Source: Parcubacteria group bacterium Gr01-1014_38 (GTDB lineage: Bacteria > Patescibacteriota > Andersenbacteria > UBA10190 > CAIZMI01). Taken from it: a stretch of DNA of 64,000 bases. Under the pieces are notes generated by a model. It ran no database searches. It saw nothing but the letters and a program-made list of their open reading frames with translations, and was not told the origin of the DNA. Location: assembly GCA_007376145.1 (NCBI GenBank), contig VMFP01000003.1, positions 28,741 through 92,740 on the forward strand. Reading direction: 5' to 3'. Positions 2,634-23,387 of this stretch are shown piece after piece (within the stretch, counting starts at the first letter, position 1; each line of letters starts with the position of its first letter). The position numbers and the translations under genes were made by a program.

Positions 2634-2664
2634 CCCGCCAGGAATACTTTTTATCGGCAGACCT
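2634..2664. repeat. 31-bp perfect direct repeat, left copy (island boundary, att-like)
   Basis: cccgccaggaatactttttatcggcagacct is identical to 18276-18306. Confidence 0.85.
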
Positions 2665-2698
2665 GGGTGCCCCGAATGGCATTCGGGTTCCGCTTCAT

Positions 2699-2992
2699 TC
2701 ATCGACGACTATTCCCAGCCCCGGAATGGGTTTGTGTTTCCAGAGCTGCCGACCGTGCGCTGCTTAGCGTTCGCCCAAACGCTCGGATAACGGGGTCAAC
2801 CATCCCGTACCGCTGGATGCTCTCCGCGAGCTGGGCGGTCGCATCCTTGTTCCAGCGGCGGGGGTTGTATGGAGCGGGTTTCAGTAGATCGATAGGGACA
2901 TACTGAATCGCTAGGTCGTGTTTGATCATGTTGGTGTGGAGTGCTTTTGTGCGCATGTTGTGAGATGAAGTGAGATATAAAAAGCCGGACAA
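2699..2992 (-). pseudogene. ParB-like N-terminal domain fragment (truncated)
   Basis: 'YVPIDLLKPAPYNPRRWNKDATAQLAESIQRYGMVDPVI' matches the ParB/Srx N-terminal motif. The frame then degenerates after about 50 aa. It lies just inside the left island repeat. Confidence 0.4.
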
Positions 2993-3186
2993 GATCCCGA
3001 AAAACAGGGATGAAGACTCCCAGTTTTTCAGAAGATTGTCCGGCGTTTTTGATGCTTATAGCATCGCCTACGGGCGTTACCCCGCAGACAACTTCTGTCC
3101 CGACACGGTTTTAAAGAGCTGTCCAAAGTTTAGCGCACTTCGCCATGCCCGTCAAATGCGTGTTCGCGAAAAACGCGCGGTGTCTA

Positions 3187-3216
3187 TTGACAGTAGTTGC
3201 TTAGGTTGTTTAGGAT
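3187..3216 (+). promoter_or_regulatory. Sigma70-like promoter for the island defence operon
   Basis: -35 TTGACA (3187-3192), 18-nt spacer, -10 TAGGAT (3211-3216). RBS GAGG sits 4 nt before the ATG at 3225. Confidence 0.5.
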
Positions 3217-3224
3217 GAGGACTA

Positions 3225-3515
3225 ATGAACGACCTGAAACAAGTTGGTGATTTACCAGGAGCCCAACAGAAGGCGCTCTACACCATTCTCCGCCTGGATA
3301 AGCCTGCATTTCGGACGTCCGACGTCCGCAAGAAGATGGAAGGAACTGCCACGGGCAAGTCCGTCGGGGCGATTCTCAACGCTCTCTTCCGCAACGGCTA
3401 TCTCGAGAAGCTTCAAGGTGGTAGGGATAAACTCTGGAAGCTCTCTGAACAAGCTGAAACTGTCCGTGACGAGATCAGACGGAAAATTTCCGCCGTGAAG
3501 GTCTACTGGTCATGA
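3225..3515 (+). CDS. Small winged-helix-like putative regulator
   Basis: 96-aa ORF with helix-turn-helix-like content. Its stop overlaps the start of the downstream helicase (ATGA), indicating translational coupling. Confidence 0.4.
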   Translation: MNDLKQVGDLPGAQQKALYTILRLDKPAFRTSDVRKKMEGTATGKSVGAILNALFRNGYLEKLQGGRDKLWKLSEQAETVRDEIRRKISAVKVYWS

Positions 3516-6500: not shown

Positions 6501-6694
6501 AGCAGACGACGAAAAAAGTCTTCCAGCAGCTCAGCCGTGAACTCAAGCACGGCATCAATCCGTTGAAACTCCTTGCGGTCGTACAACAGAGCGTCCCACG
6601 CGAATTCCTGGAAAGTCACCGCGCGGAAAGCGCGGCCGACGTGTCCGGCCCGCGCGAAGTCATTCTGTCCGAATACTTCACCACGACGCGATGA
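3512..6694 (+). CDS. PLD-family (HKD) nuclease / SNF2-family helicase fusion protein (restriction-like component)
   Basis: The N-terminus carries a single HKD motif ('HAKVYIM...GSSNFTQAGL'). It is followed by SNF2 motifs: GLGKT, 'FIDEAHRFR' (DEAH), helicase-C ('TEVLSEGVNL', 'QRVGRINR'). Confidence 0.85.
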   Translation: MNTDLTFITNEKGQSLKERFEVLIRDTKFFDALVGYFYTSGFHALYKPLENTQKIRILIGIGTSKQTLELIEQSRQKTFELSHAETKQVFSDLVAGEMSTSEDNRHVEEGVRKFTEWLRSGKLEIRAYPAADIHAKVYIMSFAEGDRDAGRVITGSSNFTQAGLVENLEFNVELKNRADYEFAKQKFEELWKDAVDVREKYLETITSRTWLNDTVTPYQLYLKFLYEYFKDELRPAEDMLFRYIPSEFKRLEYQEQAVLNAKKILDEYGGAFLSDVVGLGKTYMAAMLASQLDGRTLVIAPPVLLEKANPGSWPSVFPDFRVAADYESLGKLDHLLKRGIEKYQNVFIDEAHRFRTESNVTYEKLARICRGKRVVLVTATPYNNSPKDVLSQIKLFQTGKRSTIPNVPDLESFFSRLEKRVQHLDRQRDRDEYLLRTKENAREIREKVLKYLMVRRTRREIELYFGEDLKRQNLQFPTVSDPEPVFYELNEDEDVIFSKTIEFVAKQFTYARYTPLLYFKGDVPQVDEQGQINMGKFMKILLVKRLESSFHAFRNTVDRFLHSYEQFLRELERGHVYVSKKYIHKIFELIDEGDEEEIQRLLGEDKAQRYTAADFRPQFKKDLEHDLALLREIRVMWQRVTRDPKLLTLVELLSTRSLLKKSKLILFTESKETAEYIAKHLEQKFSGEILLFTGASSALVRERVIENFDARARFPKDDYRLLITTEVLSEGVNLHRSNVVLNYDIPWNPTRLMQRVGRINRVDTAFNTIHAFNFFPTRQAEDAIKLRAAAEAKIHAFISLLGSDARLLTDGEPIESHELFSRLVTKETITGEREEEESELKYLRVIRDIRDREPDLFDQIKRLPKKARTARKHTEAQRRLITYFRKSKLQKFFAVDGRESTEQDFLSAARLLEATPRETRESLGPDFYELLEKNRRAFELATIEEGLLESQERSGRDSATNVLKILRAIKDQRQFTEEQEEYLKLVMKRLELGAVPKQTTKKVFQQLSRELKHGINPLKLLAVVQQSVPREFLESHRAESAADVSGPREVILSEYFTTTR

Positions 6695-9600
6695 CGAGAG
6701 AACAAGCGAAGCAACTCGTTCAAGAAGCGCTCCAGAGGCCGTTCGACAAGGGGGGCTTTGTTCGTCTCGTGCGTAACCTCCTGAATCACTTGGAGGATGC
6801 CCCGTTTACCTACAGCGGCAACACGATGCGCCACGCGTATGCAAATGCCGTCAAGTCGCTCGAGCGCATTGGGAAGTACGAGGACCCAGAGGGGAGGAAA
6901 ATCGACGTGCTTGTCGTGAATCTCCGGCATGTCCACGCACTCGACCATGCCCGCACGATGCAACGGAACTTCATCGCGTGGTATCTCAATGGCAGTCGCG
7001 GAGACGTTTTCAAAGATGCAGCACTCGTCGCCTTCCATGCTGACGATGCGCCCGATTGGCGCTTCTCGCTCGTCCGCATGGACTATCGCCTCACGAAATC
7101 CGGCGAGAAAGTGAAGGCGGTCACGGAACTCACGCCAGCTCGGCGCTTTTCATTCTTGGTTGGGCAGCATGAAAAGACGCACACCGCGCAGAAGCAGCTC
7201 CTGCCAATCCTCGAGGATGACACACACGATCCGCTTCTTTCTAACCTCGAGCAGGCGTTCAGCATCGAGACAGTTACAAAGGAGTTCTTCGGGCGATACC
7301 GCGACCTCTTTCTTGAAACGAAGGAAGCGCTGGACAAAGTTGCCCGACGTGATAACGCCGTGCGAGAGGAGTTTTCCAATAAAGAAGTTGATACCACCGA
7401 CTTCGCCAAAAAACTTCTCGGGCAGATCGTCTTTCTCTACTTCCTCCAGAAGAAGGGGTGGTTCGGCGTGGCGCGGACGGGCAAGTGGGGTTCGGGGCCG
7501 AAGAATTTTCTTCGACAGCTTTTCGAGAAGAAGCATGGAGACTACAAGAACTTCTTCAATGATATTCTCGAACCCCTATTCTATGAGGCGCTCGCGAAGG
7601 AACGCGACAATGATTTTTACAGCCGCTTCAACTGCAAGATCCCATTTCTGAACGGTGGACTCTTCGATCCCATCTACAACTACGATTGGGTACACACGGA
7701 CATTCTTCTTCCCGATGAGTTGTTTTCAAATACTTTGCGGACAAAAGAAGGCGATATTGGGGCGGGCATTCTCGATGTCTTTGACCGCTATAACTTCACC
7801 GTCAAGGAAGACGAACCGCTGGAAAAGGACGTCGCCGTTGACCCGGAGATGCTCGGAAAGGTCTTCGAGAATCTCCTAGAAGTTAAAGACCGCAAGTCCA
7901 AAGGCACGTATTACACGCCGCGTGAGATTGTCCATTACATGTGCCAGGAAAGCCTGGTGAACTATTTGGCCGCAGAACTCGAGGGTATGGTGGGCCGAGA
8001 GGACATCGAGACGCTCATCAAGTATGGGGAGACAGCGGTTGAACACGACCGGCACGTTGAAGAAGGGGGAGAGACGCCGACGTACCAACACCGACTTCCC
8101 GAGGCGGTTCGCGCACGCGCGAAAGTGATCGACGACAAGCTCGCGGATATCCGCGTCTGTGATCCCGCGGTCGGCTCCGGAGCCTTTCCAGTCGGGATGA
8201 TGAACGAGGTTGTTCGGACACGCAACGCACTCACGAATTACGTTGAAGACAAAGATGATCGCTCAATGTACGAATTCAAGCGACACGCGATTCAGAGCTC
8301 TCTATATGGCGTGGACATCGATCCCGGCGCGGTCGAGATTGCCAAGCTCCGACTTTGGCTCTCGCTCGTCGTCGATGAAGAGGACATAAAAAAGATCAAG
8401 CCGCTACCCAACCTAGACTACAAAATGGTGCAAGGCGATTCGCTTTCGTCTGTTCAGAAGAATCTATTCAACCAACCGTTGTTTAATAAGCTTGAGGAGC
8501 TTAAACCCAAATTCTTTGAGGAGACCAATGCGCGCAAGAAGCAGGAGTATCGGCGGCAGATTGATGAACTTATTGATCAAATAACTAGAGGACACAAAGA
8601 TTTTGATTACGAAGTGTACTTCTCAGAAGTTTTCCACGAGAAGAAGGGGTTTGATGTTGCAATCGCAAATCCTCCATATCTCCAGATTCAGAAGATGGCA
8701 AAATCAGAAAAAGAGCGTTTCAGAAAGATCTTCAGAACTTTTTCAAAGACCGGAGACATTTACTGCTTGTTCTACGAACGGGCCATTCAGATATTAAAAC
8801 AAGACGGTACCTTGACCTTTATCACGTCGAATTCCTGGTTACGGGCAAGATACGGTGAGCTACTGAGAAAACTTTTGATTGAAAAGGCAAATCCTGTCCG
8901 GCTAATAAATTATGAGGATGCGCGGATGTTTGAACATGCTATCGTCGAAACCAACATCCTAATCGCTCAAAAATCCCAGTGGAATGGCCGTCTCCATGCC
9001 ACCACCGTCAAAAATAACAACTTAAATGCTTTGCCACTTGACGAGTATGTAAAGGGAAATACCTCCGTTATTAGTGACTTGGGAGTCGATAGCTGGAATA
9101 TCGCCGACAAAGCATCGTCTGGCCTAAAGAAGAAAATTGAAAGCCACTCAGTTTCGCTAAAAGACCTGAACGTTTCAGTTTATCGTGGTATTACAACGGG
9201 TTTCGTCGAGGCATTTGTTGTCGATGAGGAGATCAGGAGAAATTTAATCACTCAAGATGAAAAAAGCGCGGAAGTAATTAAGCCTGTCTTACGCGGGCAA
9301 GACGCAGGTAGATATTTCTATGCTTGGAAAGGACTTTGGCTAATAACGCTGCAATCAGGATGGACGAATAGAAATCGGGGCGGGAAAAGCCCGGAAAGTT
9401 TTTTTGCTGAAACCTATCCCGCAGTACACGAATATCTTAAAGGAGTAGGCTCCAAGATAAAAATTGGAGCGATTAAGGCGAAGGGAAAAGGATTATATGG
9501 TCGTGATGACCAAGGTGATTATTGGTGGGAACTCAGGGATTGTGATTTTTACTCCGAGTTTGAGAAAGAAAAAGTTATCTGGGGAGAGTTGTCTGATAAA

Positions 9601-9996
9601 CCGAAATTTACCTATGACGATCAGAAGTATTACGCACTTGATACCCTATTCGTAATGACGGGCGAATCTCTGAAATACTTGTTAGCAATTCTCAATTCGA
9701 AAATTTCCGAATGGTACTTCGCCCAAATCTCGACGAGTTCTGGCATGGGAACCACTAGATGGAAGAAGTACAAAATTGAACAGTTTCCAATAAAAAAGAT
9801 ATCTAAGGAGGAACAAAAGCCGATTGTACACCTAATCGATAAAATACTTTCCCTAACGATGGGCGAGGACTATTCGGCAAGCGATACGAAGCAAGCCAAA
9901 GTCCGCGAATACGAAAGACAAATCGACCAGCTCGTCTATAAACTCTACGGTCTTACACCAGAGGAGATTTCAATTGTTGAGCAAGGCAATGGCTAA
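6691..9996 (+). CDS. Eco57I/PglX-like gamma-class N6-adenine DNA methyltransferase with C-terminal specificity region
   Basis: Motif I 'DPAVGSGAFPV', motif IV 'ANPPY', and an N-terminal 'IVFLYFLQKKGWF' helix typical of type IIG/BREX PglX-like methyltransferases. No nuclease domain is present. The start overlaps the helicase stop (ATGA). Confidence 0.85.
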   Translation: MTREQAKQLVQEALQRPFDKGGFVRLVRNLLNHLEDAPFTYSGNTMRHAYANAVKSLERIGKYEDPEGRKIDVLVVNLRHVHALDHARTMQRNFIAWYLNGSRGDVFKDAALVAFHADDAPDWRFSLVRMDYRLTKSGEKVKAVTELTPARRFSFLVGQHEKTHTAQKQLLPILEDDTHDPLLSNLEQAFSIETVTKEFFGRYRDLFLETKEALDKVARRDNAVREEFSNKEVDTTDFAKKLLGQIVFLYFLQKKGWFGVARTGKWGSGPKNFLRQLFEKKHGDYKNFFNDILEPLFYEALAKERDNDFYSRFNCKIPFLNGGLFDPIYNYDWVHTDILLPDELFSNTLRTKEGDIGAGILDVFDRYNFTVKEDEPLEKDVAVDPEMLGKVFENLLEVKDRKSKGTYYTPREIVHYMCQESLVNYLAAELEGMVGREDIETLIKYGETAVEHDRHVEEGGETPTYQHRLPEAVRARAKVIDDKLADIRVCDPAVGSGAFPVGMMNEVVRTRNALTNYVEDKDDRSMYEFKRHAIQSSLYGVDIDPGAVEIAKLRLWLSLVVDEEDIKKIKPLPNLDYKMVQGDSLSSVQKNLFNQPLFNKLEELKPKFFEETNARKKQEYRRQIDELIDQITRGHKDFDYEVYFSEVFHEKKGFDVAIANPPYLQIQKMAKSEKERFRKIFRTFSKTGDIYCLFYERAIQILKQDGTLTFITSNSWLRARYGELLRKLLIEKANPVRLINYEDARMFEHAIVETNILIAQKSQWNGRLHATTVKNNNLNALPLDEYVKGNTSVISDLGVDSWNIADKASSGLKKKIESHSVSLKDLNVSVYRGITTGFVEAFVVDEEIRRNLITQDEKSAEVIKPVLRGQDAGRYFYAWKGLWLITLQSGWTNRNRGGKSPESFFAETYPAVHEYLKGVGSKIKIGAIKAKGKGLYGRDDQGDYWWELRDCDFYSEFEKEKVIWGELSDKPKFTYDDQKYYALDTLFVMTGESLKYLLAILNSKISEWYFAQISTSSGMGTTRWKKYKIEQFPIKKISKEEQKPIVHLIDKILSLTMGEDYSASDTKQAKVREYERQIDQLVYKLYGLTPEEISIVEQGNG

Positions 9997-11032
9997 GCGT
10001 CTTACTATTATTCTCGGTGCCGGTGCATCCTATAGCGTCAATCCGGATGGAAAGGCACTTGATACCCCTGGTTATCGACCACCTCTCGCGCATGAGATTT
10101 TTCGAGGTAGTCGAGAATTTAGAGTTATTTTGAATAAGTATCCACTCGCGGAACTCCTCGCAAGTGATATCGATCGCCGCATAAAACAGAACCGACAAGG
10201 AGTTGGGCTCGAACAAATCTTGCGTAGTTACGAGCAGGAAGTAACGGCGGGACGTGATTCACACATCGCCCGTCAGTTTTTGCAAATCCCTCTCTATCTT
10301 AATGAATTGTTCGGAGAGATAACGACTCACTTTACCAAACAGCCCGATGAGTACAACAACCTCGTGAATATAGCGCTCGGTCACCTCGATGAAGTTCTGT
10401 TTCTGACTCTGAATTACGACAATCTTTTTGAGATAGCGTTATCTCGAATCTCTAGCGTAGATTTTTCTGCAGAGCATCATTATACGCACGATGACAAATG
10501 GAAGCTCGTTAAACTTCACGGGTCGGTCAACTGGTATCGCCAGTTTTCGGGCTATCAGATTACAGAAGCAAGTGACAAGGAGTATTTTGCCCAACTGCAG
10601 CGCACTCCTCTTCCTCTTCAGCTTGACGATCGATTCATTTTAACGAGCCTACACGAGCATGCTCGGAAGTACATCGGGAACGCTCCTGTATATCCAGCAC
10701 TCACGGTACCCGTCGATGGAAAGTATCAACTGAATTCGCCGCCCGAGCATATTCAGTCCGCGACGGATTTTCTCTCAGGGTGCGAAAACTACCTCATTAT
10801 CGGCACGAGTGGTCGTGATCGCGATTTACTTGACCTGCTCCAGCAGCACGCACGGCAAGGGAAAGTTTTGGTTGTTGGGAGAGAGCAAGAAAATGCCGAG
10901 CGCACGAAGAGGAATTTTCAGGAAGTTGTCCCACAATTTCGATCTGATATGTCTGTGTATTCTCACCCGAGAGGATTCAGTGAATTTGTTGACAGCGGAG
11001 CACTGGACGAATTCTTACATAAGATCGCGTAA
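9986..11032 (+). CDS. SIR2-like (SIR2_2 family) NAD-dependent domain protein
   Basis: N-terminal 'TIILGAGASYS' Rossmann motif and 'KLHGSVNW' His motif typical of defence-associated SIR2 domains. The ATG at 9986 overlaps the 3' end of the methyltransferase. Confidence 0.7.
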   Translation, partial: AMAKRLTIILGAGASYSVNPDGKALDTPGYRPPLAHEIFRGSREFRVILNKYPLAELLASDIDRRIKQNRQGVGLEQILRSYEQEVTAGRDSHIARQFLQIPLYLNELFGEITTHFTKQPDEYNNLVNIALGHLDEVLFLTLNYDNLFEIALSRISSVDFSAEHHYTHDDKWKLVKLHGSVNWYRQFSGYQITEASDKEYFAQLQRTPLPLQLDDRFILTSLHEHARKYIGNAPVYPALTVPVDGKYQLNSPPEHIQSATDFLSGCENYLIIGTSGRDRDLLDLLQQHARQGKVLVVGREQENAERTKRNFQEVVPQFRSDMSVYSHPRGFSEFVDSGALDEFLHKIA

Positions 11033-11042
11033 ACATTCTGTC

Positions 11043-11372
11043 ATGTATCATCGTATATTTTGGGAACGGAAGGTCGAAGAAATACCTTGTCGTTGCTGTG
11101 GCTCGTTTAAAGCGACGCTCCGTTACAGTAAAGACGCTGAAAAGCTTTTTAAGGAAAAACTGTTTGAGCAATTTCGCGAGCACGCATACTGGAATCACTG
11201 GTATAACAAACACTACAACTGCGTGCGCTGCGGCCAATGGATTCCACCTGCTGAACGGGAACTAATCGTGGCCCATGGTTACCCCATCGATAATGTCCAT
11301 CCCGATTATTGCAAGGAGGAACAGCCCCATCTTCTTCGCATACACCGTCGCTGCCTAGATGAGTTATCGTAA
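11043..11372 (+). CDS. Small HNH-type endonuclease-like Zn-finger protein
   Basis: CxxC...CxxC pairs and 'AHGYPIDNVHPDYC' are consistent with the HNH fold. The start is taken at the internal ATG (MYHRI...) just after the SIR2 stop rather than the long overlapping upstream extension. Confidence 0.45.
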   Translation: MYHRIFWERKVEEIPCRCCGSFKATLRYSKDAEKLFKEKLFEQFREHAYWNHWYNKHYNCVRCGQWIPPAERELIVAHGYPIDNVHPDYCKEEQPHLLRIHRRCLDELS

Positions 11373-11377
11373 GTCGT

Positions 11378-11881
11378 ATGCCACAGTGCACTTCCTGCGG
11401 ATCGAGCGATTTCACACAGTACGGCCCTTACGCGGGCAGAATTGTTGCTGGAGGTGAAGTTCCTGATCTTAAGGATCAGATCATTGCGAGAAAATGTTCA
11501 GCCTGTGAATATCTTCAACTGGAAAAGCAGCTTACATCGGGCGTGAGAGTTGCCACAGCGCATATTGTAAAGGAAGGTCGTGCTGAGGACGTGCAACGGA
11601 TCATCGTCCGCTTCCTCTCCGACGAGCCGGATCAAAACGCTTTAATAAAGGAGTTCTACATCTGGCTTACCCAAGTATTCGTCGAGGATTTATTGAGACT
11701 TAAGGAGAGTGCAGAGGCACATGATTTTCTTCAAGCTGCAATTTTGGTTGCTGGATCGGAGTATAGAAAGGCGCATCAAGTGCCGAAGTATGGCGGAGTA
11801 GATTGCAGGGAGGAGTTTGGCGGCTGTCGGATCGTCTCCCGTCCGGAGACGTACAACTATCCTATCAAGCCGGATGTGTGA
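11378..11881 (+). CDS. Hypothetical protein with N-terminal zinc ribbon
   Basis: CTSCGS...CSACEY motif. Tightly spaced in the same plus-strand array. Confidence 0.4.
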   Translation: MPQCTSCGSSDFTQYGPYAGRIVAGGEVPDLKDQIIARKCSACEYLQLEKQLTSGVRVATAHIVKEGRAEDVQRIIVRFLSDEPDQNALIKEFYIWLTQVFVEDLLRLKESAEAHDFLQAAILVAGSEYRKAHQVPKYGGVDCREEFGGCRIVSRPETYNYPIKPDV

Positions 11882-11924
11882 ATTTTCCCACGATTTTTCT
11901 GCCTTATAACTGAACCAAAAGCAC

Positions 11925-13136
11925 ATGATAGCGCGCAGAGATACACCAAACTATAGAATATACGCTCTAGTCATTGGAGAGATACTTCGGCCAGGAAAAC
12001 TATTTGATTGCGAGATTAAAGAAATGAGTTTTGTAGAACAAGAAAAGAGAAGATTTTCCCCCATTGAGAGTGTTTTTTCTGGGAGGCACGGTGGAGATAG
12101 CAAAACTTACGCCACGCGCCTGCCTTACGTGGATCCGATGAGAATTAAGTCGGAACGTGTGGTTGTGTGCGATATTGATGAGGATGACGTAAAAGCTGCT
12201 CTAGGAGGCGCGATTAGACGAATTGAGAGGCTGTGCCGATTTTTGTCGGTCGCATATGTCGAAGATGCGAAGAAGAATTTTAGGAGAGAGCGCTTTGGAC
12301 TAACGCCATACCTCTATCAAGTAAACAAAGTCTACTCACTTGATACCGGCGGAAAGGAGCTAGATGCAGGCTTCAAGTTGGAAAGTGACTATGTTTATCT
12401 ACCGAATAGGCCTGAGCTCAACCAGTGGCGGCACAAAGAAACCGAGAAATTTCTGGAAGATATTTTTATTTTTCATGACGAGACATTAGAGCGAGCAATT
12501 AAGTATCTGTATCGATCCTCCATCGGACACTTTGTGGGAGATAGTCCTGAAAAAAGAGCTCTCGACCACATAAAATCAATCGAAATCATCTTGAATTCTC
12601 TATCAAGTAAAAGAAAGTTCGAGGGCAAGCTTAACGAGGCTGCTAACAAAATTGATCTCACCGAGAACGAGAAAGAAGCAATAAAGAAACTTTGGGAGAA
12701 TAGGTCGCGTTATGGTGACGTTGCCCATCCTTCTCCCTTCGATCAAGTTGAACGGTACCCAAACCAGTTCCCATTACCCAGTAATGTTCGATATCCGGGA
12801 GGAATCCATGACTCAATCGCGATCAATGTTTGTTTGAAGTACTTCTCCTACAGGAGAAGTTTATATGTCATAGACATAGAGAAGCCTTTTCGTGGTGAGG
12901 GCGTATCCAGCGACAGACAGGACGAAGAGGATATTATCGGTAATGTAAACCCCCAGTGGGAGAGCAACCACTTGTTTTTTAGGACTTCCGAAAAGGAAGA
13001 GAAAAAGCTTACGAAAAAAATACGACAGGCATTCGCTCGCGAATATGGAATTAGCGAAGGTCGTATTCTCAATGTTGTCGTTAAGCGGATTAGGAATAAG
13101 GAGAGCGTTATTGTAAGAGTGCAACCAACTGCGTGA
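11925..13136 (+). CDS. Hypothetical protein, possible HEPN-like (Rx5H) Abi-type effector
   Basis: 403-aa ORF. The 'RSRYGDVAHP' segment fits the Rx4-6H HEPN signature. No other recognisable domain. Confidence 0.4.
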   Translation: MIARRDTPNYRIYALVIGEILRPGKLFDCEIKEMSFVEQEKRRFSPIESVFSGRHGGDSKTYATRLPYVDPMRIKSERVVVCDIDEDDVKAALGGAIRRIERLCRFLSVAYVEDAKKNFRRERFGLTPYLYQVNKVYSLDTGGKELDAGFKLESDYVYLPNRPELNQWRHKETEKFLEDIFIFHDETLERAIKYLYRSSIGHFVGDSPEKRALDHIKSIEIILNSLSSKRKFEGKLNEAANKIDLTENEKEAIKKLWENRSRYGDVAHPSPFDQVERYPNQFPLPSNVRYPGGIHDSIAINVCLKYFSYRRSLYVIDIEKPFRGEGVSSDRQDEEDIIGNVNPQWESNHLFFRTSEKEEKKLTKKIRQAFAREYGISEGRILNVVVKRIRNKESVIVRVQPTA

Positions 13137-13166
13137 TAAAGCACCCTATTGGATTAGTGGAGCACC

Positions 13167-13643
13167 ATGGAAATCCTCGACGAGCAGCAAATCATTGAAA
13201 GGCGCCGGGAAACCGAGCAAGGCCTTGTGGATCTCCTCGAAGAAACGGGAAGCGATTTCGGTTTGGATGACATCAAGGAGATCATCTTCAACGAAGACGG
13301 ACAGGACGACCTCACCGACATCATTGCGATGTTCGATACCGGTCAGGGCGCGGCCGAACTTCAGGATGTTCTCGACCTCGTCACCGACGCCTGGAATTGC
13401 TTTCCACACAAATCTTTAGGCGGCCTCTCGCCGGCGGAGAAGGTGCTGGCATATCAGCAACGCAGCGACGGAGCGCCGGACCACCCGTCCGCGAATACCG
13501 TAGGAGGTGTTGGGGTATTCGTTTGTCGATGCGACGATCCCCACTGCGCGAAGTGCCTTCTCGTCAATTGCGAAGACAATCACTGCTCCGTCCACACGAA
13601 GGAACGAAAAGAGGCGTTCCGCAGAACATACCGCCAGCGATAG
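13167..13643 (+). CDS. Acidic hypothetical protein
   Basis: 158 aa with a strongly D/E-rich N-terminal half and a Cys/His-rich C-terminus. Last gene of the plus-strand array. Confidence 0.35.
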   Translation: MEILDEQQIIERRRETEQGLVDLLEETGSDFGLDDIKEIIFNEDGQDDLTDIIAMFDTGQGAAELQDVLDLVTDAWNCFPHKSLGGLSPAEKVLAYQQRSDGAPDHPSANTVGGVGVFVCRCDDPHCAKCLLVNCEDNHCSVHTKERKEAFRRTYRQR

Positions 13644-14120
13644 CTACGCGGTGGGCAGTAACCCGCCTTGCAAGAGAGGAAGTTTGATTAAATCACGGAG
13701 CTGATCGGGATTTTTGGCAAGATCAACCTCAACCCACGAGGCGAAGGCGTTATGTCGCTGAAGCACGGTCTTCTCCTCTTCAAACACATCGTCGTCAAAC
13801 CAGAGGAAATTTCGTGAGAAATCAATCGCTTCTGTTTTCAGCGTCGTCCAATTAGTAGGCTTCACTTGCCGTAACAGAGATAGAGTCTCAGAGGGTAGGT
13901 ATCGTGACAGAATACGGAGAGGCTGGGCCGTATCTCCTTTGCAATGCGTCGTGAGCCAATAGGTTTGATAGCGCTCGACGACGTACCGAATGAACGCATC
14001 AACATGCCGCGCTGGCTGCTTATCGTTTGCCAACAAGACTCCGTCGATGTCGAGATAAATGTCCATATGCTCATCATAGACCTTTCCGCCGCGTTCTCCG
14101 TAGTCTAGAGTATGATGCAA
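13644..14120 (-). CDS. HAD-superfamily hydrolase (nucleotidase/phosphatase-like)
   Basis: Motif I 'IYLDIDGVLL' (DxDG) and a late acidic motif 'FLWFDDD'. Confidence 0.55.
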   Translation of the reverse strand: MHHTLDYGERGGKVYDEHMDIYLDIDGVLLANDKQPARHVDAFIRYVVERYQTYWLTTHCKGDTAQPLRILSRYLPSETLSLLRQVKPTNWTTLKTEAIDFSRNFLWFDDDVFEEEKTVLQRHNAFASWVEVDLAKNPDQLRDLIKLPLLQGGLLPTA

Positions 14121-14140
14121 ATGATCAGCCGAATTCGCTT

Positions 14141-14632
14141 ATGACAGGATTCATTGTTGCGGCACTTATTGTTGTTGGCGGCATCGTCCTATATGCATTG
14201 CGACGCATGTTTCGCCACGGCGGGCGAATCACCAAGTATTTCGAAAATGCCGTGACCGTCTATATCTGGCTGGGTGAAGAAGATGCGCGGATTGCAGCCG
14301 TCACTGCCGCCAAGGTAGCGGCGAAAAGGCAGAGAAAACTCATGGCAGGGTATCTGAAACTACACGCAGAGCTATCCGAAATTTCGATTATTCCGGAGGC
14401 ACAGGAATCCATCCAAACCCTTCGAGAGCTCATAGATGACATTGAAGCCAAGGAGTGGAGTATACGGGACATCATGAAGGCAAAGGATAAACTCGAAGCA
14501 AGCAATCCTGAATATCTCAGGGCACTGAATAGAGCAGATAGTGGGATTTTTCCTCGAAAGTATCCGCGACTATTTGCGGCAAAGAGTATTCGCGAGACTG
14601 CTGCAATCGCCAAGAAAATGCAGAGCAGTTAA
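14141..14632 (+). CDS. Hypothetical single-pass membrane protein
   Basis: 'MTGFIVAALIVVGGIVLYAL' TM helix then a charged coiled-coil-like region. The start is chosen downstream of the overlap with the opposing HAD gene. Confidence 0.35.
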   Translation: MTGFIVAALIVVGGIVLYALRRMFRHGGRITKYFENAVTVYIWLGEEDARIAAVTAAKVAAKRQRKLMAGYLKLHAELSEISIIPEAQESIQTLRELIDDIEAKEWSIRDIMKAKDKLEASNPEYLRALNRADSGIFPRKYPRLFAAKSIRETAAIAKKMQSS

Positions 14633-14643
14633 GCGTTCATTCT

Positions 14644-15258
14644 GTGGCCACAGTAACTGAAAAATCGCTCGCGGAATTCAAACGAATCTACAAGAAGGAA
14701 TACGGCAAAGATATAGGCGACGCCGAGGCGCGCGACGCCGCGCAGCGCTTGCTGGACGTGTTCAAGCTTCTTCTTGATGTGGATAAGAAGGAGCGAGCAC
14801 GACAACTCAAGCTCAAGGAATCCCCAAAAGGATACCACCTCACCGACGGCACCTACAGCTGTTGTGTCTGCGGGAAGCAGGTCTCCGGTGAAGGAAGTTG
14901 GTACGACAAGCACGGCATTAAGTGCCTTCTCTGCCAGCGGGCGGTCGAGCAGCGAAAGATTCCGGTCAGCGTCTGCACGAACAAAGACAGCTGGTATGCC
15001 ACGTGGGAACTCGCGTACTACTACAAACTGAAATCACCGACGATCCGCAAGCTTGTTCGCAACGGCACCCTGAAAGCCCGCATCGTGCCGCACGAGAATG
15101 GAAGCCCATACTTTTCCGTCTTTCTGGTCAAGGACAACCTCGGTGTTCTTCAACCGAAACCGAAGCCGAAGATCGTTCACGTAGACGAGCGAACCATCAC
15201 CGTCGAGTCCCCGGGATTAACGCTGGGGATTACCAGCCAAAATCTACCCCATCCGTGA
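14644..15258 (+). CDS. Hypothetical Zn-finger protein
   Basis: 204-aa ORF (apparent GTG start) with CCVCGK...CLLCQ motifs. Confidence 0.4.
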   Translation: MATVTEKSLAEFKRIYKKEYGKDIGDAEARDAAQRLLDVFKLLLDVDKKERARQLKLKESPKGYHLTDGTYSCCVCGKQVSGEGSWYDKHGIKCLLCQRAVEQRKIPVSVCTNKDSWYATWELAYYYKLKSPTIRKLVRNGTLKARIVPHENGSPYFSVFLVKDNLGVLQPKPKPKIVHVDERTITVESPGLTLGITSQNLPHP

Positions 15259-15330
15259 TTAAGGCATCTTTACAGAAAGGCCACTCTCTACAATAATTCA
15301 TTGTTCTTGGCGGTACTAATTTTTAGAAAA

Positions 15331-15354
15331 CGCCTGCATGGTGACATGCAGGCG
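15331..15354 (-). terminator. Rho-independent terminator (perfect 10-bp stem)
   Basis: cgcctgcatg-gtga-catgcaggcg hairpin, with a T-run on the minus strand (plus-strand ttttagaaaa immediately 5'). It lies between convergent genes. Confidence 0.6.
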
Positions 15355-15369
15355 TGAAGTTACCTTGAT

Positions 15370-15939
15370 CTATACGGATCTATATGACTCAAAGAGCTTC
15401 GCGATGGATTCCATCACGCTGATCTCTGTCTCGACATCGCACAGATCATACTTTCCAGAGAAGCCGTCGATGACCTTCGAGACGTAGGCTATCAGCCTGT
15501 CTGACGAAAACAAGTCGATCCTGGCGACAAAGAGACTTTTCCTGTTTTCTTCTATCAGTTTCCGAACCGAGAGCGGCACCTTGTCAGATAACATCGGCGG
15601 ATGCAGGAGGATGATCGGCTTTGCGTGTAAGATCGCATAGGCCGTTTCAATGCTCGCGCTTTCACCGATATATCCGCGATGCCTTCCGTGCTTGTTATGC
15701 ACGATGTGAACAGGATTTGTTCTGATCGCCGCGAAGAAAGCCAACTCGACATCGTAGAACGACTGGTCGGCGGTAGGCATAAACGTAACCGGCGTGCCTT
15801 GGTATTCTCCGACGATCTTGTCGCTGAATGGGAACTGTACCTCGATCCCCGCTGCAACCAATCTTCTCTTCAGGTTGAAAATTCCCCTATCTCTCTTGGA
15901 GAATTTCCCGCTCATTTGTGTTTTCATCGTGTCCGGCAT
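15370..15939 (-). CDS. Nucleoside 2-deoxyribosyltransferase/DNPH1-like fold protein (paralog A)
   Basis: 'GYIGESASIETAYAILHAKPIILL' aligns with 'NYIGGNSFLEIGYAHIVGKKIFL' of the 17557-17979 protein. It carries the conserved Glu typical of N-glycosidic-bond enzymes of this fold. Confidence 0.45.
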   Translation of the reverse strand: MPDTMKTQMSGKFSKRDRGIFNLKRRLVAAGIEVQFPFSDKIVGEYQGTPVTFMPTADQSFYDVELAFFAAIRTNPVHIVHNKHGRHRGYIGESASIETAYAILHAKPIILLHPPMLSDKVPLSVRKLIEENRKSLFVARIDLFSSDRLIAYVSKVIDGFSGKYDLCDVETEISVMESIAKLFESYRSV

Positions 15940-16006
15940 TACACGACCTCCTTTCTGTTTGAGGCTAAGAAAAAGGCGGCGTGGAAACCCAGCCGCCCAA
16001 TGTTGC

Positions 16007-16663
16007 CTACAAAGCCGTGATTTCTAGCTCCTTAAAGAGATCGGCGGGAACGGCGAATGTCGTCTTCGCTTTGCTCCTCAAGTCGGAAGGCCTGCCGAGT
16101 ATTTCTTCGGCATGGTCAATCGACCCATACCAAAGAGACTTGAACTTCGCCTCTCGCATGCCCTGCATGTCCATATGAGCGACATGAAGCACGCCGGGAT
16201 CAGATTCTTTCATAACTTGTCGGTACTCCGGCTTCGGCTTGCACCGAAATGTAATTTCGGTAAAGAGCGCCTGACGGGTTTTGGGCAGAAAATCGAATCC
16301 TCCGAAGCCGAGCATCCAAGACACCTCTTCTCCGACTCGCACGCGGTATCCGAGGCAGATGCTGTCTTCGCATTCTTCCGCCGATCCCAGAAAGATGCTG
16401 TTGACCTTTTTGAAGGCAAGCAGGAGTTCCTTGAGATCGTCTCGCTTCAAGACTTTCGGAAAGATGATGCTTTTGGTGGAGATTTTCTCGTCGCTGATCG
16501 CTTCTTGGATGAGCGACTCCATTTGTTGCGGATCAACATCGGCAACAGAGAAGTACCACCCGAACTTTTCAGGATCGGAGGCGGCGTGAGCCGCAAAGAG
16601 ACACCCCGCATTTCCTTGCCGGTAGAACGCAAGCTGGTCCTCGACGATGCGTCTCTCAAGCAT
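16007..16663 (-). CDS. Hypothetical protein
   Basis: 218-aa ORF in the same minus-strand cluster. No confidently recognised domain. Confidence 0.4.
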   Translation of the reverse strand: MLERRIVEDQLAFYRQGNAGCLFAAHAASDPEKFGWYFSVADVDPQQMESLIQEAISDEKISTKSIIFPKVLKRDDLKELLLAFKKVNSIFLGSAEECEDSICLGYRVRVGEEVSWMLGFGGFDFLPKTRQALFTEITFRCKPKPEYRQVMKESDPGVLHVAHMDMQGMREAKFKSLWYGSIDHAEEILGRPSDLRSKAKTTFAVPADLFKELEITAL

Positions 16664-16797
16664 ATGAACCTCTCTTTCTGTGGGTTGTTTTTCCAGAGAA
16701 CAAACGGGCCTACATCATAAGCCTATTACCCATACTGTCAACATCTTGGGCGATGATACATAAACCCTCTGCCAAAGAGGGTTTATGAGTCGGCGGG

Positions 16798-17553
16798 CTA
16801 CGAAATTGCCAGAGTAAATATCTTTTTATATTTTCTCAAATATTGACTCCGGTCTTTCCTGCGATATTGAAGAACAAATCTTGGATGTTCCAGAGCATGT
16901 ATCTTTTCGAAAAATCCGTATTCTTCGTTTATGCCCTGAAACACTTTGAGATTCGTTCCCGTGCCCAGCACAATGGCCAGCCTTCTGTTTGCGCCGAAAT
17001 CAATTTGTTTTTTTACGGTCTCTACGAGAAACGGCCGTATTCGAGAAAGAAAACCCGCGTCATCATAGTAATTGTAATTCCTGTTGTCTCGGACAAAACC
17101 AACAGGACAAACCGCAGTCAAGAAAAACGACCCATAAAACGCTTGTACTCCGCCGAGTTTGTTGATGACTTCATAGACAAACCCAGAAGTAAGCTCGCGC
17201 TTTTTCTCAAGCGAGTTGGGAATGCGGCAATACTCCTGTAAGGCTACTGGATCTGTAAAGGGAACCCCCGTGGTTCCGGATCCGAATCTGCCCGGATTGA
17301 TGCCAAAGGCGAAGATACGGTTCTGCGTATCCGAATAAAACTTGTCATAAAACTCCTTTGCGTATCCTCGTGTCTGCGGATGTGCATACGGATAGATGAT
17401 TTCCATTCCAGGCAATAAGAGTTTGCGAGGGAAAACAAGAGTATTGTAAAAATCCAGCACTCGCTCGCCGAATGTCTGTTTCTTGGCCGATTTTTTCATC
17501 TGTAACCTTTCCTTTCTTTCGATTGTTAAAGAGCGCTCTCGGGTTACCATCAT
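16798..17553 (-). CDS. Uracil-DNA-glycosylase superfamily protein (MUG/TDG-like GINPG motif)
   Basis: 'GINPGRFGSGTTGVPFTDP' matches the family-2 (MUG/TDG) motif A, and a later 'EHPRF' is a possible motif B. The true start may be the internal MKKSAKK (17499). Confidence 0.5.
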   Translation of the reverse strand: MMVTRERSLTIERKERLQMKKSAKKQTFGERVLDFYNTLVFPRKLLLPGMEIIYPYAHPQTRGYAKEFYDKFYSDTQNRIFAFGINPGRFGSGTTGVPFTDPVALQEYCRIPNSLEKKRELTSGFVYEVINKLGGVQAFYGSFFLTAVCPVGFVRDNRNYNYYDDAGFLSRIRPFLVETVKKQIDFGANRRLAIVLGTGTNLKVFQGINEEYGFFEKIHALEHPRFVLQYRRKDRSQYLRKYKKIFTLAIS

Positions 17554-17556
17554 ATA

Positions 17557-17979
17557 TTAGCGTATTAAATTCAAGTCGCCATTAATAATCATTGGCCGCA
17601 CTGCTTCAATCTCCTGTTGAATCAATTCAATATCGGGAATTTCGTTCATCAAGAAAATTTTCTTGCCCACAATGTGGGCATACCCAATTTCCAGAAAGGA
17701 ATTGCCTCCGATGTAATTTTCTACGCCCTTCTTTTCGTAGTTCAACACTAAAATTGCATCAGAATGCGCTATAAGCTGGCAATGTTTGCGGATAAGATCG
17801 TTCGCCATCTTTCTTTGAGCGCCTTCCGATCCGCCCATGTTGTTTTTATCAACGCGGCCGTTGGCGTACTCTTCAGTTCCTTCCGGGATAAACACTGTAT
17901 GACCACGCTTTTCGATTTCTTGTCTGGCAATAATCATTTCCTTGGCAAAGGCCATACTGCCACAAAGAGTTATTTTCAT
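17557..17979 (-). CDS. Nucleoside 2-deoxyribosyltransferase/DNPH1-like protein (paralog B)
   Basis: 'MKITLCGSMAF...' Rossmann-like start and 'NYIGGNSFLEIGYA' catalytic-Glu region typical of the NDT/Rcl family. Confidence 0.55.
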   Translation of the reverse strand: MKITLCGSMAFAKEMIIARQEIEKRGHTVFIPEGTEEYANGRVDKNNMGGSEGAQRKMANDLIRKHCQLIAHSDAILVLNYEKKGVENYIGGNSFLEIGYAHIVGKKIFLMNEIPDIELIQQEIEAVRPMIINGDLNLIR

Positions 17980-18112
17980 ACTTACTTGGCTTCACACATC
18001 AATAAAGGGACATTTCTTTTCTCGTCCGTGATGAGTTCACATTCCACAAGGCGCAGGGATTGATTGCTATTTCCCATGCAGGAAGCGTGTCATAACACAG
18101 CGATCTCGTCCA

Positions 18113-18162
18113 AAATGAGACACGGAGGCTTCCTCCTTTATACTGTCTCATTTGTCTCATTT
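18113..18162. repeat. Inverted/tandem repeat element near island right end
   Basis: aaatgagaca (18113-18122) is inverted relative to tgtctcattt (18144-18153). tgtctcatt is then directly repeated (18153-18161). Confidence 0.5.
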
Positions 18163-18275
18163 CCCTCTCAAACCCCCGAAAGTTGCGCCCCGACCCACTC
18201 CCCTCCCCGTATCTAGAAAAGCGTCCGAAAAATCCCTAAACTCCCTCGAGGGGTCCGGGTTCCAGACCCATATGT

Positions 18276-18306
18276 CCCGCCAGGAATACTTTTTATCGGC
18301 AGACCT
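18276..18306. repeat. 31-bp perfect direct repeat, right copy (island boundary, att-like)
   Basis: Identical to 2634-2664. It is fused to the 14-bp head (gacccatatgtccc, 18265-18278) of the 57-bp repeat family. Confidence 0.85.
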
Positions 18307-18335
18307 ACATGGTTAGATAGTTTTAAAATGATTTT

Positions 18336-19292
18336 ATGCTTACCCACACCGATATTCATTATCTAGTTGGTTTACTTACTAGAGTGGAGGAAGCTGACGA
18401 TGTCATCGTTGAGTTAGGCGATATGGTGTACGACTCAGCGGCCAATGAAGAGAGGGACGTAGATATTACTGTTACATATACTGATAAGAACGGTGAAAAA
18501 ACTGCCTACAAAGGTGTTGAAGTTAAGGATCATAGTAGACCGCTTGATGTCCAAAAGGTTGAAGAGCTTTGCCAGAAGCTTGCAGACATGCCAGACATTA
18601 CACATAAAGCAATTGTTTCGGCGAGCGGCTATAGAGACGGTGCGATAAAAAAGGCTCAAGCACATGGAGTAGAGTTGTTGGAAATAGCTGATTGGCTAAA
18701 TCCGTACGAGGGATTCAACGTGAAGTTTACTGATAATGCTCTCACTCTAATTGAGCCCGAGTGGGTAGATGGTCCTCATGTGCGTATTAATGTCGCAAAG
18801 AAAGATATTGATGATCTATCGGGCGAATATCAAAACAATCCACGAGTATGCAATAAATTGGGTGATACGTATCCTCATGCAGTGGATCTCAATACCTTGA
18901 GCCGGTATGCTCACAGCACCGTATCGAATAAGATTCAGTGGCAGACTGATCCAATTCGCGTGAGGCACGGTGAAAGTATTCCTATACACACCGCTGTGCT
19001 TTTTTCAGAAGCACCATATATTAAACTTCGCAACAAACTGGTTTTAGTAGAAAATTGTACGGTTACCGGCGAAATTTACTGCATAGTTCACGACAAGCCC
19101 GCGTTCAGGGTATTGCGACAATATGGCAGCGAAAAACCAATCTCAGGCTGTATAATGGTTGAGCTAAAGAACCATAATCTTACGGGTATATCCGTGAGTA
19201 ATTCGAATAACAAAATTACTGCCCTCAACATTCCGTACGCCGATCGTGTAAAGAAGACGATACGTAAACATCGAATCGGAAGACGGGACTGA
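18336..19292 (+). CDS. Hypothetical protein, possible PD-(D/E)xK nuclease fold
   Basis: 'RDVDITVTY...YKGVEVKD' is a D...(E/D)xK-like pattern. AT-rich cassette flanked by related repeats. Confidence 0.35.
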   Translation: MLTHTDIHYLVGLLTRVEEADDVIVELGDMVYDSAANEERDVDITVTYTDKNGEKTAYKGVEVKDHSRPLDVQKVEELCQKLADMPDITHKAIVSASGYRDGAIKKAQAHGVELLEIADWLNPYEGFNVKFTDNALTLIEPEWVDGPHVRINVAKKDIDDLSGEYQNNPRVCNKLGDTYPHAVDLNTLSRYAHSTVSNKIQWQTDPIRVRHGESIPIHTAVLFSEAPYIKLRNKLVLVENCTVTGEIYCIVHDKPAFRVLRQYGSEKPISGCIMVELKNHNLTGISVSNSNNKITALNIPYADRVKKTIRKHRIGRRD

Positions 19293-19314
19293 ACACGCCC
19301 CATCATTCGCCTCC

Positions 19315-19371
19315 GACCCATATGTCCCAAGTTCACTCCCGAATTGACCTTTAATAAATCCCTCAATACAC
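19315..19371. repeat. 57-bp cassette-flanking repeat (copy B)
   Basis: gacccatatgtcccaagttcactcccgaattgacctttaataaatccctcaatacac is about 81% identical (46/57) to 19973-20029. Confidence 0.7.
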
Positions 19372-19396
19372 AAAAAACCATGGTTAAACAAGAAGT

Positions 19397-19957
19397 ATGA
19401 GGGATGAAATCATTGAGAAACTAAATAAGCGTCTAGCCGAGGGTATTAACCGTGAATCCGATGTTGTCTATTTATTCGTTGAGATCCGGAAGTTATTTGA
19501 ACATGACGACTTGCCTCAGTATCCACAACTCAGGTTTTATGGAGATTGGGTAGTGCACACCAAGCTATCGAGAATACGTCGAGACGGCGCTTTGGCTGAA
19601 TATTTAGGAAGGATCAATGATGCAGTTGATATTAAGCGGCAGGGGGGTGAAGAACAGAATGTGACTACTCAAATTACTAACGCAATGTCTCTTGATCGTC
19701 TAAGAGAAGAAATGGTGACTTTCTTTCAAGAAAGAAGTTTGGACAGTCGCTTACTAGAAGTAGGCCAGTGGAGAAATTTTATAAAATGGCTCATCAGTAT
19801 TCTGATAGATACACCACTTGTGGCGTCTAACCACCCTGATTTCAACCTTATCAAGGAATTTTCGTTCGGCCCAAGCAAAGATGAAACTTCTGTTGCCAGC
19901 TACAAGATCGTGTGTGCAGATGGGACTACTGTTACCGGCCAAGTTTTTGTTAATTGA
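19397..19957 (+). CDS. Hypothetical protein
   Basis: 186-aa ORF, AT-rich, between repeat copies B and C. Confidence 0.35.
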   Translation: MRDEIIEKLNKRLAEGINRESDVVYLFVEIRKLFEHDDLPQYPQLRFYGDWVVHTKLSRIRRDGALAEYLGRINDAVDIKRQGGEEQNVTTQITNAMSLDRLREEMVTFFQERSLDSRLLEVGQWRNFIKWLISILIDTPLVASNHPDFNLIKEFSFGPSKDETSVASYKIVCADGTTVTGQVFVN

Positions 19958-19972
19958 TAATGCCACGTTTGC

Positions 19973-20029
19973 GACCCACATGCCTCAAAGTCACTTCCGA
20001 ATTGGCCCCTAATAAATCCCTTAACACAC
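19973..20029. repeat. 57-bp cassette-flanking repeat (copy C)
   Basis: gacccacatgcctcaaagtcacttccgaattggcccctaataaatcccttaacacac. It is followed at about 20052-20083 by a degenerate copy of the 31-bp att-like sequence (cccgccaccagtatgaaatatcgggacagtcc). Confidence 0.65.
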
Positions 20030-20236
20030 TGAACTATGTGGGTACTGAACCCGGGTGGCCCGCCACCAGTATGAAATATCGGGACAGTCCGAAACTCCAT
20101 CCCTTGATCTTAAAGCTCCCAGAGCAGTATAGTATCCTCACGGTAGGTTTGACTTTCTTGGTTCCCTTATGCGAATATCAGCGTGTAGGTTTGGAGAAAA
20201 GAGCGAACTTACACCCTTATTCGTAGAGAGAATGCT

Positions 20237-23186: not shown

Positions 23187-23387
23187 TCATTTCTTCGTCA
23201 CATACTTCCACAGAGCGGCAATCCCGAGCACAAGCGCCACCACCACGAGCGCATACAGTACCCACCCCCAGAACATCATCCCCGAGCCGTACGCACCGCT
23301 CATCATGCTGAATCCATCATCATACGCATGGTACTCCTGTTTCCACTTCCAGACCCGTAGGTCCCGCCGCATTGATTCTCTGATCAA
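23187..23387 (-). CDS. Small membrane protein
   Basis: 66 aa with the 'MMFWGWVLYALVVVALVLGIAALW' helix. Confidence 0.3.
   Translation of the reverse strand: MIRESMRRDLRVWKWKQEYHAYDDGFSMMSGAYGSGMMFWGWVLYALVVVALVLGIAALWKYVTKK

Follow-up and report, generated by a model that had tools for sequence, protein, structure and literature searches.

How can gene modules accumulate one behind the other at a single chromosomal site when no integrase is visible beside them? This question is raised by a locus of Parcubacteria group bacterium Gr01-1014_38, an Andersenbacteria genome of the Candidate Phyla Radiation (CPR). We analyzed a 64-kb stretch of its contig VMFP01000003.1 (positions 28,741 to 92,740, forward strand), here called the window, and compared it with 15 other contigs that carry the same junction unit (L001-L004 and 11 more loci). 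An earlier reading made from the letters alone (the sequence-only reading) had described tandem cassette-like modules at 18241-20083, separated by a diverged 57-bp repeat and an attachment-site-like (att-like) 31-bp sequence. On balance we favour the view, with considerable reservation, that the region from 18.2 to 20.1 kb forms the distal portion of an array of gene cassettes, of a kind which recurs in CPR directly downstream of tRNA-Ser genes, and that this array grew by serial site-specific insertion through an enzyme supplied in trans. Most of the related contigs are short metagenome fragments, and all evidence is comparative and computational.

The junction unit

A profile of 17 units (16 from other contigs and repeat copy 2 of the window) was run on the window and found three copies, all of them inside one array. 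These joints, named c0, c1 and c2, delimit two small cassettes, one with a gene for an Mrr-type nuclease and one with a gene for a 186-aa protein. The order of the features is:

18191..18282, + strand, unit c0, a diverged 'C type' with the head CGACCCAC (profile E=0.013)
18336..19292, + strand, open reading frame (ORF) 1, 318 aa, Mrr-type PD-(D/E)xK nuclease, G01um101438_345 (Pfam Mrr_cat)
19314..19389 (end approximate), + strand, unit c1 (repeat copy 1), head and 5' part of an 'A type' unit
19397..19957, + strand, ORF2, 186 aa, without known family or fold, G01um101438_346
19972..20065, + strand, unit c2 (repeat copy 2), a complete 94-nt 'A type' with the head CGACCCACATGCC

The profile match was complete for c2 (19967-20065, 76 bits), covered only the head and middle of c1 (19307-19383, E=2e-5) and reached from 18212 to 18262 in c0 (E=0.013), the full extent of which was read by eye. 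The direct repeats 19314-19371 and 19972-20029 agree at 47 of 58 positions, where the sequence-only reading had counted 46 of 57 from 19315. Both ORFs that it had placed between the repeats exist. The 14-nt head GACCCATATGTCCC that it had seen at 18265 is indeed an exact copy of that at 19315 and occurs with three mismatches at 19973. Likewise present is the inverted motif pair, CCGGGTTCCAG at 18255 and CTGAACCCGGG at 20045, with the shared form CCGGGTTC(C)AG.

In the alignment the two "57-bp repeats" turn out to be the first portion of a longer junction unit, which is conserved and measures 94 nt. Public genomes and metagenomes were scanned with the conserved sequence at the end of copy 2 (GGGTACTGAACCYGGGTGGCCC), which yielded the 11 more loci. 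Three of these belong to a single Saccharibacteria metagenome-assembled genome (MAG), an Andersenbacteria MAG and an unclassified MAG contribute one each, and the other six are on unlabelled metagenome contigs. Units together with the 31-bp sequence were also found on the contigs bearing homologues of ORF1 and ORF2 (L001-L004), and two or three units per contig were present in L001, L006, L011, L012 and L013. The alignment of repeat copies that had been proposed as a check comprises 17 complete units from 13 contigs in 106 columns, with zero indels and a mean column identity of 77%, where the invariance of the tail is partly by construction since the tail served as search key. Three subtypes are visible (A, B and the diverged C), and searching with the profile brought up additional copies.

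A complete unit opens with the head H (CGACCYRNATGCC); some 54 nt later H returns in inverted form, and then come a hairpin-like 5-7-5 segment (CTGGG TACTGAA CCTGG), GTGGCCC, G and CCA. Every complete unit thereby terminates in CCGCCA, as tRNA-Ser genes do. In c2 the inverted head lies at 20036-20043 and the hairpin-like segment at 20038-20054, followed by GTGGCCC-G-CCA. The tail of c0 (GGGTTCCAGACCCATATGTCCCGCCA) has the same T-arm-like 5-7-5 geometry, then 7 nt, G and CCA. In c1 neither the T-arm-like tail nor CCGCCA nor the spacer is intact; they are degenerate or absent. H itself resembles the segment of the unit tail between hairpin loop and CCGCCA (in B-type units GACCTGGATGCC versus AACCTGGGTGGCC, read directly), which explains why the 14-nt head is common to 18265 and 19315.

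Complementarity between H and inverted H is kept throughout the family, with 82% of cells paired and two compensatory pairs; the covariation score was reached by 0 of 500 shuffles. This is the sole structural signal of the units, and it fits inverted protein-binding sites as well as a stem. Further short repeats stand beside c0:

18115-18122, + strand, inverted 8-mer ATGAGACA, upstream of c0
18144-18151 and 18153-18160, + strand, two tandem copies of the 8-mer TGTCTCAT, upstream of c0

The same layout of one inverted and two tandem 8-mers is found upstream of several B-type units; L004 shares TGTCTCAT with the window, whereas L001 and L008 have TGTAACAT. By this layout the 8-mers are candidate protein-binding (arm-type) sites. 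The whole segment 18113-18311 of the window, comprising 8-mers, c0 and the following left end, is 84% identical to L004 4134-4332, and the neighbouring genes are unrelated.

The conserved left end of the cassettes

Directly behind the CCGCCA of a unit begins a second conserved sequence. In the window it was found three times:

2634..2675, + strand, left-most junction block, consisting of CCCGCCA, the 19-nt spacer GGAATACTTTTTATCGGCA and the H motif GACCTGGGTGCC; its first 31 nt equal 18276-18306
18276..18310, + strand, second junction block with the H motif GACCTACATGG, left end of the ORF1 cassette
20059..20090, + strand, a degenerate left end, CCCGCCA-N11-TATCGG-GACAGTCC, which keeps the register of the two above

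Two places, 2634-2664 and 18276-18306, hold the 31-mer CCCGCCAGGAATACTTTTTATCGGCAGACCT without mismatch. The degenerate att-like copy of the sequence-only reading exists in exact register, though its position is 20059-20090, to the right of the proposed 20052-20083. Taken alone this copy is modestly above chance (59 of 2000 shuffles reach its score). The string CCGCCA-N11-TATCGG occurs three times in the window, always on the + strand, versus 0.01 expected. Among the related contigs CCGCCA is followed by 11 nt, TATCGG, 1-3 nt, GACC, an H-like stretch and then about 30 nt resembling the 5' part of the unit. In total, the register CCGCCA-N11-TATYGR-N1-3-GAC was constant in 15 of 15 junctions from 11 contigs.

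What stands upstream of CCGCCA differs. A complete tRNA-Ser gene was found in L002, L005, L007 and L013, a true 3' fragment of tRNA-Ser in L009 and L014, and a unit tail in L004, L006, L011, L012, L002 and at window position 18276. Unrelated sequence precedes it at window position 2634 and at L011o 8250. The 29 nt from CCGCCA to GACC are identical between the window and L007, a contig of the Saccharibacteria MAG, where they lie directly 3' of tRNA-Ser(CGA). Because of this identity the perfect 31-bp duplication is not by itself the footprint of one integration. According to the compared junctions, the 31-mer is the conserved cassette left end joined to the CCGCCA junction. The 57-bp repeat and the 31-bp sequence, previously treated as two families, are thus adjacent parts of one junction, in which a 94-nt unit ending in CCGCCA is followed by the left end.

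The link to tRNA-Ser and the turnover of cassettes

Six of the related arrays (L002, L005, L007, L009, L013 and L014) begin at the CCA end of a tRNA-Ser. In the Saccharibacteria MAG three tRNA-Ser isoacceptors (TGA, CGA and GCT) are each followed by one ORF (125, 262 and 140 aa, respectively) and then by a unit. Additionally, genuine tRNA-Ser 3' fragments are located inside several related arrays.

The cassettes between these junctions change from contig to contig, so that the content is not invariant among relatives; invariance had been named as an outcome that would refute the sequence-only reading. L009 and L010 have a common chromosomal flank, starting right after the GCCA of the unit, yet they carry different cassettes and unit types. 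The order of ORF1 and ORF2 is reversed in L001 relative to the window, and the neighbours of the NUDIX cassettes differ between L011 and L013. Taken together, the sequence comparison demonstrates a conserved junction of one orientation and exact register, found repeatedly both at the ends of tRNA-Ser genes and where one cassette meets the next, and it shows that the cassette content varies. The tandem modules at a reused junction that were proposed for this locus are hence supported, whereas the link to tRNA-Ser, as well as the nature of copy 1 as a tail-less unit, goes beyond the earlier proposal.

Two further elements were noticed near the tRNA-Ser genes. Directly upstream of the array-heading tRNA-Ser of L002, the segment 1-1320 contains the 3' part of a 5S rRNA gene (1-88) and then an ORF of 381 aa with weak matches to HTH_3 and LAGLIDADG_3. 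A conserved element of about 170 nt lies near tRNA-Ser in L009 (oriented; ~1975-2125, with a degenerate second copy at ~2760-2900) and also in L007, L011 and L014. Between its start, GTGGGATTCGAAGG, and its end, GGAATCCCNCCCTCTCCGCCA, lies a terminator-like hairpin that shows compensatory changes; the element had no Rfam match and is absent from the window. It resembles the T-loop of a tRNA-Ser interrupted by about 140 nt.

Proposed mechanism

We suggest that the array has grown as cassettes inserted one after another, site-specifically and in a fixed orientation, at the CCGCCA/spacer/H junction. With every insertion a fresh, reusable junction would arrive and thereby allow stacking. Since no cassette or locus encodes a recombinase, the enzyme would have to act in trans; the likeliest candidate would be a tyrosine integrase that either the host or a cognate element provides, as with cis-mobilisable elements and satellites. 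Unit c1 lacks tail, CCGCCA and spacer, and ORF1 and ORF2 are therefore probably fused into one immobile module.

A number of results weigh against this proposal. Neither a tyrosine, a serine nor an HUH enzyme was found in the window or in the unit-bearing loci, which are at most 8-14 kb long; within this scope the missing integrase of the sequence-only reading is confirmed. The search combined regular expressions and phmmer, with XerC, IS608 TnpA and a serine recombinase from contig L018 as queries. Large serine recombinases adjoin distant ORF1/ORF2 homologues only, at loci without units. Neither an empty site nor a circular or attP form turned up, and scans of viral contigs as well as BLAST searches of phages and plasmids gave chance matches only and no unit. 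No tRNA-Ser lies at the left edge of the window array or anywhere else in the window. CCGCCA is all that a unit has in common with the 3' ends of real tRNA-Ser genes, and a tRNA-Ser profile fails to detect the unit, so that classical att identity with the tRNA is minimal. The crossover would fall within the 31-nt identity block, from CCGCCA through the first bases of H, with CCGCCA/spacer and H both still candidates. L002 and L004 have common genes and a common 5' leader but different unit types, a pattern more easily explained if the crossover lies in H or if homologous exchange took place later. Homologous exchange may also occur in these arrays, or could explain part of the pattern.

A wider proposal is possible and is made tentatively here. 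CPR may hold an undescribed system analogous to integrons, which docks at the CCA of tRNA-Ser, gives each cassette a recombination site made up of a non-palindromic 94-nt unit and a left end of about 40 nt, and inserts, stacks and shuffles single-gene cassettes between lineages through a trans-acting enzyme that is not IntI and possibly not a tyrosine recombinase.

Structural, RNA and coding roles considered for the units

When the three inter-ORF regions were folded as DNA, neither strand did better than shuffles (z -1.3 to +1.3); copy 1 gave -1.5/-4.6 kcal/mol with z = +1.3/+0.1. The same was found for eight units folded as RNA (z -0.2 to +1.2), and RNAalifold on the units returned only the invariant tail hairpin, which has 5 bp including G-T pairs. 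The attC-like folding for which a check had been proposed is hence not seen beyond shuffles. Rfam searches of the window and of 11 loci, at the gathering cut-off and at E<=10, found only tRNAs and one 5S rRNA, and no match to a unit.

Several roles were considered for the units and rejected. That 18006-18282 or the units encode a transfer-messenger RNA (tmRNA) or a tRNA was rejected, as neither ARAGORN nor the tRNA-Ser profile reported anything, and a tRNA-like acceptor pairing was tested and not supported. A small-peptide gene was rejected, with in-frame stops in 9 of 17 units and variation highest at codon position 1. Promoter and terminator counts were at background, and no terminator was predicted at units. 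A dispersed repeat of the repetitive extragenic palindrome (REP) or miniature inverted-repeat transposable element (MITE) type was ruled out by the copy number, only three in 64 kb and all in one array, and by the missing Rfam match. The units thus belong to no known RNA or REP family found by these searches; membership in such a family would have told against the cassette interpretation.

Alternative explanations

By plausibility we rank the rivals in the order HUH-type element, homologous exchange, RNA-level role and integron. The IS200/IS605 palindrome-associated transposable elements (PATEs), the REP sequences with their REP-associated tyrosine transposases (RAYT) and the IS91/ISCR/Helitron group have asymmetric ends without terminal inverted repeats or target duplication, insert 3' of a short fixed sequence, carry a subterminal 3' hairpin and are mobilised in trans. 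The cassettes might be non-autonomous single-strand transposons of such a kind (PATE, REP/RAYT or IS91/Helitron-like), inserted 3' of CCGCCA in one orientation by an HUH enzyme in trans that reads a subterminal hairpin 11 nt from the right end. This would suit the strict orientation, the differing left and right ends, the lack of terminal inverted repeats and of any target duplication beyond CCGCCA, and the absence of a recombinase in cis. Also in line with it are the hairpin-like 5-7-5 segment fixed 11 nt from the right terminus, H fixed 19 nt from the left junction, and the CCGCCA at window position 2635 and L011o 8250, which no tRNA-like or unit sequence precedes. We nevertheless consider it unlikely, as no Y1/HUH gene was found in the window or the unit-bearing loci, the hairpin contains G-T pairs and is weak, and folding exceeds shuffles neither as DNA nor as RNA. 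Moreover, a 6-nt target alone would not account for the strong tRNA-Ser bias, and the genuine tRNA 3' fragments in arrays suit the activity of an integrase better. HUH-type elements also differ in that the cargo here consists of ordinary genes and is tied to tRNA-Ser. A low probability is likewise given to the idea that no dedicated enzyme is involved, and that the cassettes lie between two conserved homology anchors (tRNA-Ser plus left end, and at the opposite side the 94-nt unit), where naturally competent, streamlined cells swap cassettes from free DNA by homologous recombination, as in a 'flexible genomic island'. The missing recombinase in window and unit-bearing loci, unit types that are not strictly co-inherited with the genes (L002 versus L004) and the tRNA flank of L009, duplicated on both sides of a cassette (>70 nt, ~93% identity), speak for it. 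It leaves unexplained the exact register in 15 of 15 junctions and the indel-free 94-nt units across at least three CPR lineages with otherwise unrelated flanks, and it accounts for replacement but not for array growth that multiplies the unit.

Two more explanations concern the units themselves. They could be functional RNA or coding features, such as a tRNA-like 3' element, a REP or terminator, or a peptide gene of 22 codons (MPQN..RKSP..NNPGY*). In favour of this, the geometry of the tail (5-7-5 hairpin, 7 nt, G, CCA) is exactly that of a tRNA, units are on the same strand as tRNA and cargo, and the open 22-codon frame, which ends in the hairpin loop, is kept in 8 of 17 units. With no Rfam match at E<=10, folding that is not significant, unsupported acceptor pairing, a tRNA-Ser profile that misses the units, stops in 9 of 17 units and no predicted terminator, such a role is very improbable. 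The array could finally be an integron cassette array without integrase (CALIN), with the repeats as attC, as the sequence-only reading had offered. It is true that mostly single, co-oriented ORFs are each followed by a repeat, that no integrase is visible, that order and content vary, and that GTTRRRY-like strings (GTTAGAT, GTTAAAC) stand ahead of both ORFs. The repeats are not imperfect palindromes and lack the symmetry of R''/L''-L'/R' boxes, the units have a fixed length of 94 nt where attC lengths vary, and docking is at the end of a tRNA gene and not at an attI beside intI. Together with folding no better than shuffles, this effectively refutes the integron. We retain serial site-specific insertion at the tRNA-Ser-associated junction as the preferred explanation.

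Cargo and extent of the array

The HMM search of the cassette ORFs gave a divided result. ORF1 matched Mrr_cat (PF04471) with 25.9 bits, above the curated cut-off of 21, and has the motif residues D41/D43...E62-V-K64; by its sequence it is a predicted Mrr-type restriction endonuclease, in agreement with the PD-(D/E)xK nuclease suspected earlier. ORF2, which sits after unit c1, had no match in Pfam or PADLOC. Its AlphaFold model is confident (pLDDT 86), showing a helical bundle and a small beta domain, and had no fold match in the Protein Data Bank (PDB). Members of the ORF2 family always lie directly 3' of an effector-like gene, either Mrr-like (290/278 aa; L002, L004) or encoding a 245-aa zinc-ribbon protein (L001). 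ORF2 may be an unrecognised partner in two-gene defence modules, and because its relatives always follow an effector gene, ORF1 and ORF2 may even work together.

To the left of c0 lies a defence island of 15.6 kb, bounded by the same joint sequences as the small cassettes:

2665..18112, + strand, 15.6-kb low-GC cargo block, defence island, without recombinase or internal unit
2699-2992, - strand, truncated ParB_N fragment
3512-6694, HKD+Snf2 helicase
6691-9996, type IIG restriction-modification enzyme
9974-11032, SIR2-like protein
16798-17553, uracil-DNA glycosylase (UDG)

Furthermore, the island carries two deoxyribosyltransferase-like genes, and in Pfam and PADLOC scans its genes returned defence and nucleotide-metabolism families only. 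A low-GC block spans from about 8.2 to 20.2 kb. The cargo of the related arrays is diverse as well and includes HEAT repeats, an alpha/beta hydrolase, a methyltransferase, NUDIX and ThsB-TIR.

Ahead of the island, 490 nt of GC-rich non-coding sequence (2146-2633) end at the first junction block. In the relatives L144-L146 a B12-binding radical-SAM gene is located immediately upstream of a CofE-like gene and has no homologue anywhere in the window. This radical-SAM/CofE difference (2146-2633) marks a synteny break at the array edge. An empty site was sought through relatives of CofE (72-75% CofE identity); their synteny ends at CofE, and no units were found there.

On the right side one more trace of a junction was found:

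23347..23368, + strand, remnant of a C-type unit tail, TTCCAGACCCGTAGGTCCCGCC, matching the c0 tail 18260-18281 at 20 of 22 positions

It sits in an intergenic gap just ahead of the gene for the CCA-adding enzyme (23448-24827). Going by this match the remnant may be an older junction, to which the array once extended, and because of it the gene for an RRM-type RNA-binding protein and three minus-strand genes (20.1-23.3 kb) may have belonged to this array as one of its older modules. A near-perfect long hairpin (20169-20228) in the 5' leader of the RRM gene (20237-20557) gave a spurious Rfam miRNA match; it may be a regulatory leader.

A Logan contig, which is an independent assembly of the same run (SRR8863434), is 100% identical to window positions 18837-24802, so that the joints are not a mis-assembly. 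The end of a Logan contig in the 31-mer was rejected as a biological end and is a break of the k=31 graph. Farther downstream, at 41600-46650, lies a very large gene region with at least 12 diverged 45-nt coding repeats at multiples of ~138-141 nt, which indicates a repeat-domain surface protein.

Relation to known systems and significance

Tandem islands at tRNA genes are described as insertions at the tRNA 3' end, where newer elements push older ones outward, att-type repeats stand between modules and degenerate remnants pile up (PMC4383910; bioRxiv 10.1101/2020.12.28.424599). Like such Islander-type tyrosine-integrase islands and those seeded by tycheposons in Prochlorococcus, related arrays start at the CCA end of a tRNA-Ser, and some of them hold genuine tRNA-Ser 3' fragments. 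They differ in that the separators are a conserved 94-nt unit across CPR lineages instead of partial copies of the adjoining tRNA, and in that the modules are often single genes of 0.5-1 kb. Furthermore, the 15 loci yielded neither an integrase nor a replication module, and the array of the window is without a tRNA. With integrons and CALINs the array shares co-oriented, largely promoter-less one-gene cassettes with a repeat like a recombination site behind each, a single docking site where the array begins, a shuffled order and an enzyme encoded outside the cassettes. Unlike in integrons, there is no attC hairpin, IntI or attI here, the unit length is fixed, docking is at the CCA of tRNA-Ser, and each cassette has an additional conserved left end.

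Integrative mobile elements exploiting Xer (IMEX) at dif, pdif modules, cis-mobilizable elements (CIMEs) and integrative satellites are cargo-only modules bounded by recombination sites, and they can stack in tandem at one chromosomal site. The cassettes resemble IMEX, pdif modules and CIMEs in being stacked and cargo-only; unlike in these, the junction has no dif-like 11-6-11 symmetry and the target is a tRNA end. In kind, the system is best placed as a tRNA-anchored accretion of integrative cassettes. Full-text literature searches returned no description of this architecture.

CPR/Patescibacteria have tiny genomes with few recognised mobile elements, yet much horizontal transfer (PMC12455944). 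If the interpretation is true, an enzyme-less cassette architecture on tRNA-Ser would be a concrete route by which CPR gain and shuffle defence and accessory genes. It would also point to a missing recombinase or transposase that is directly searchable, and unit tail and left end would provide sequence tags for mining cassette cargo from metagenomes, as attC does for integrons.

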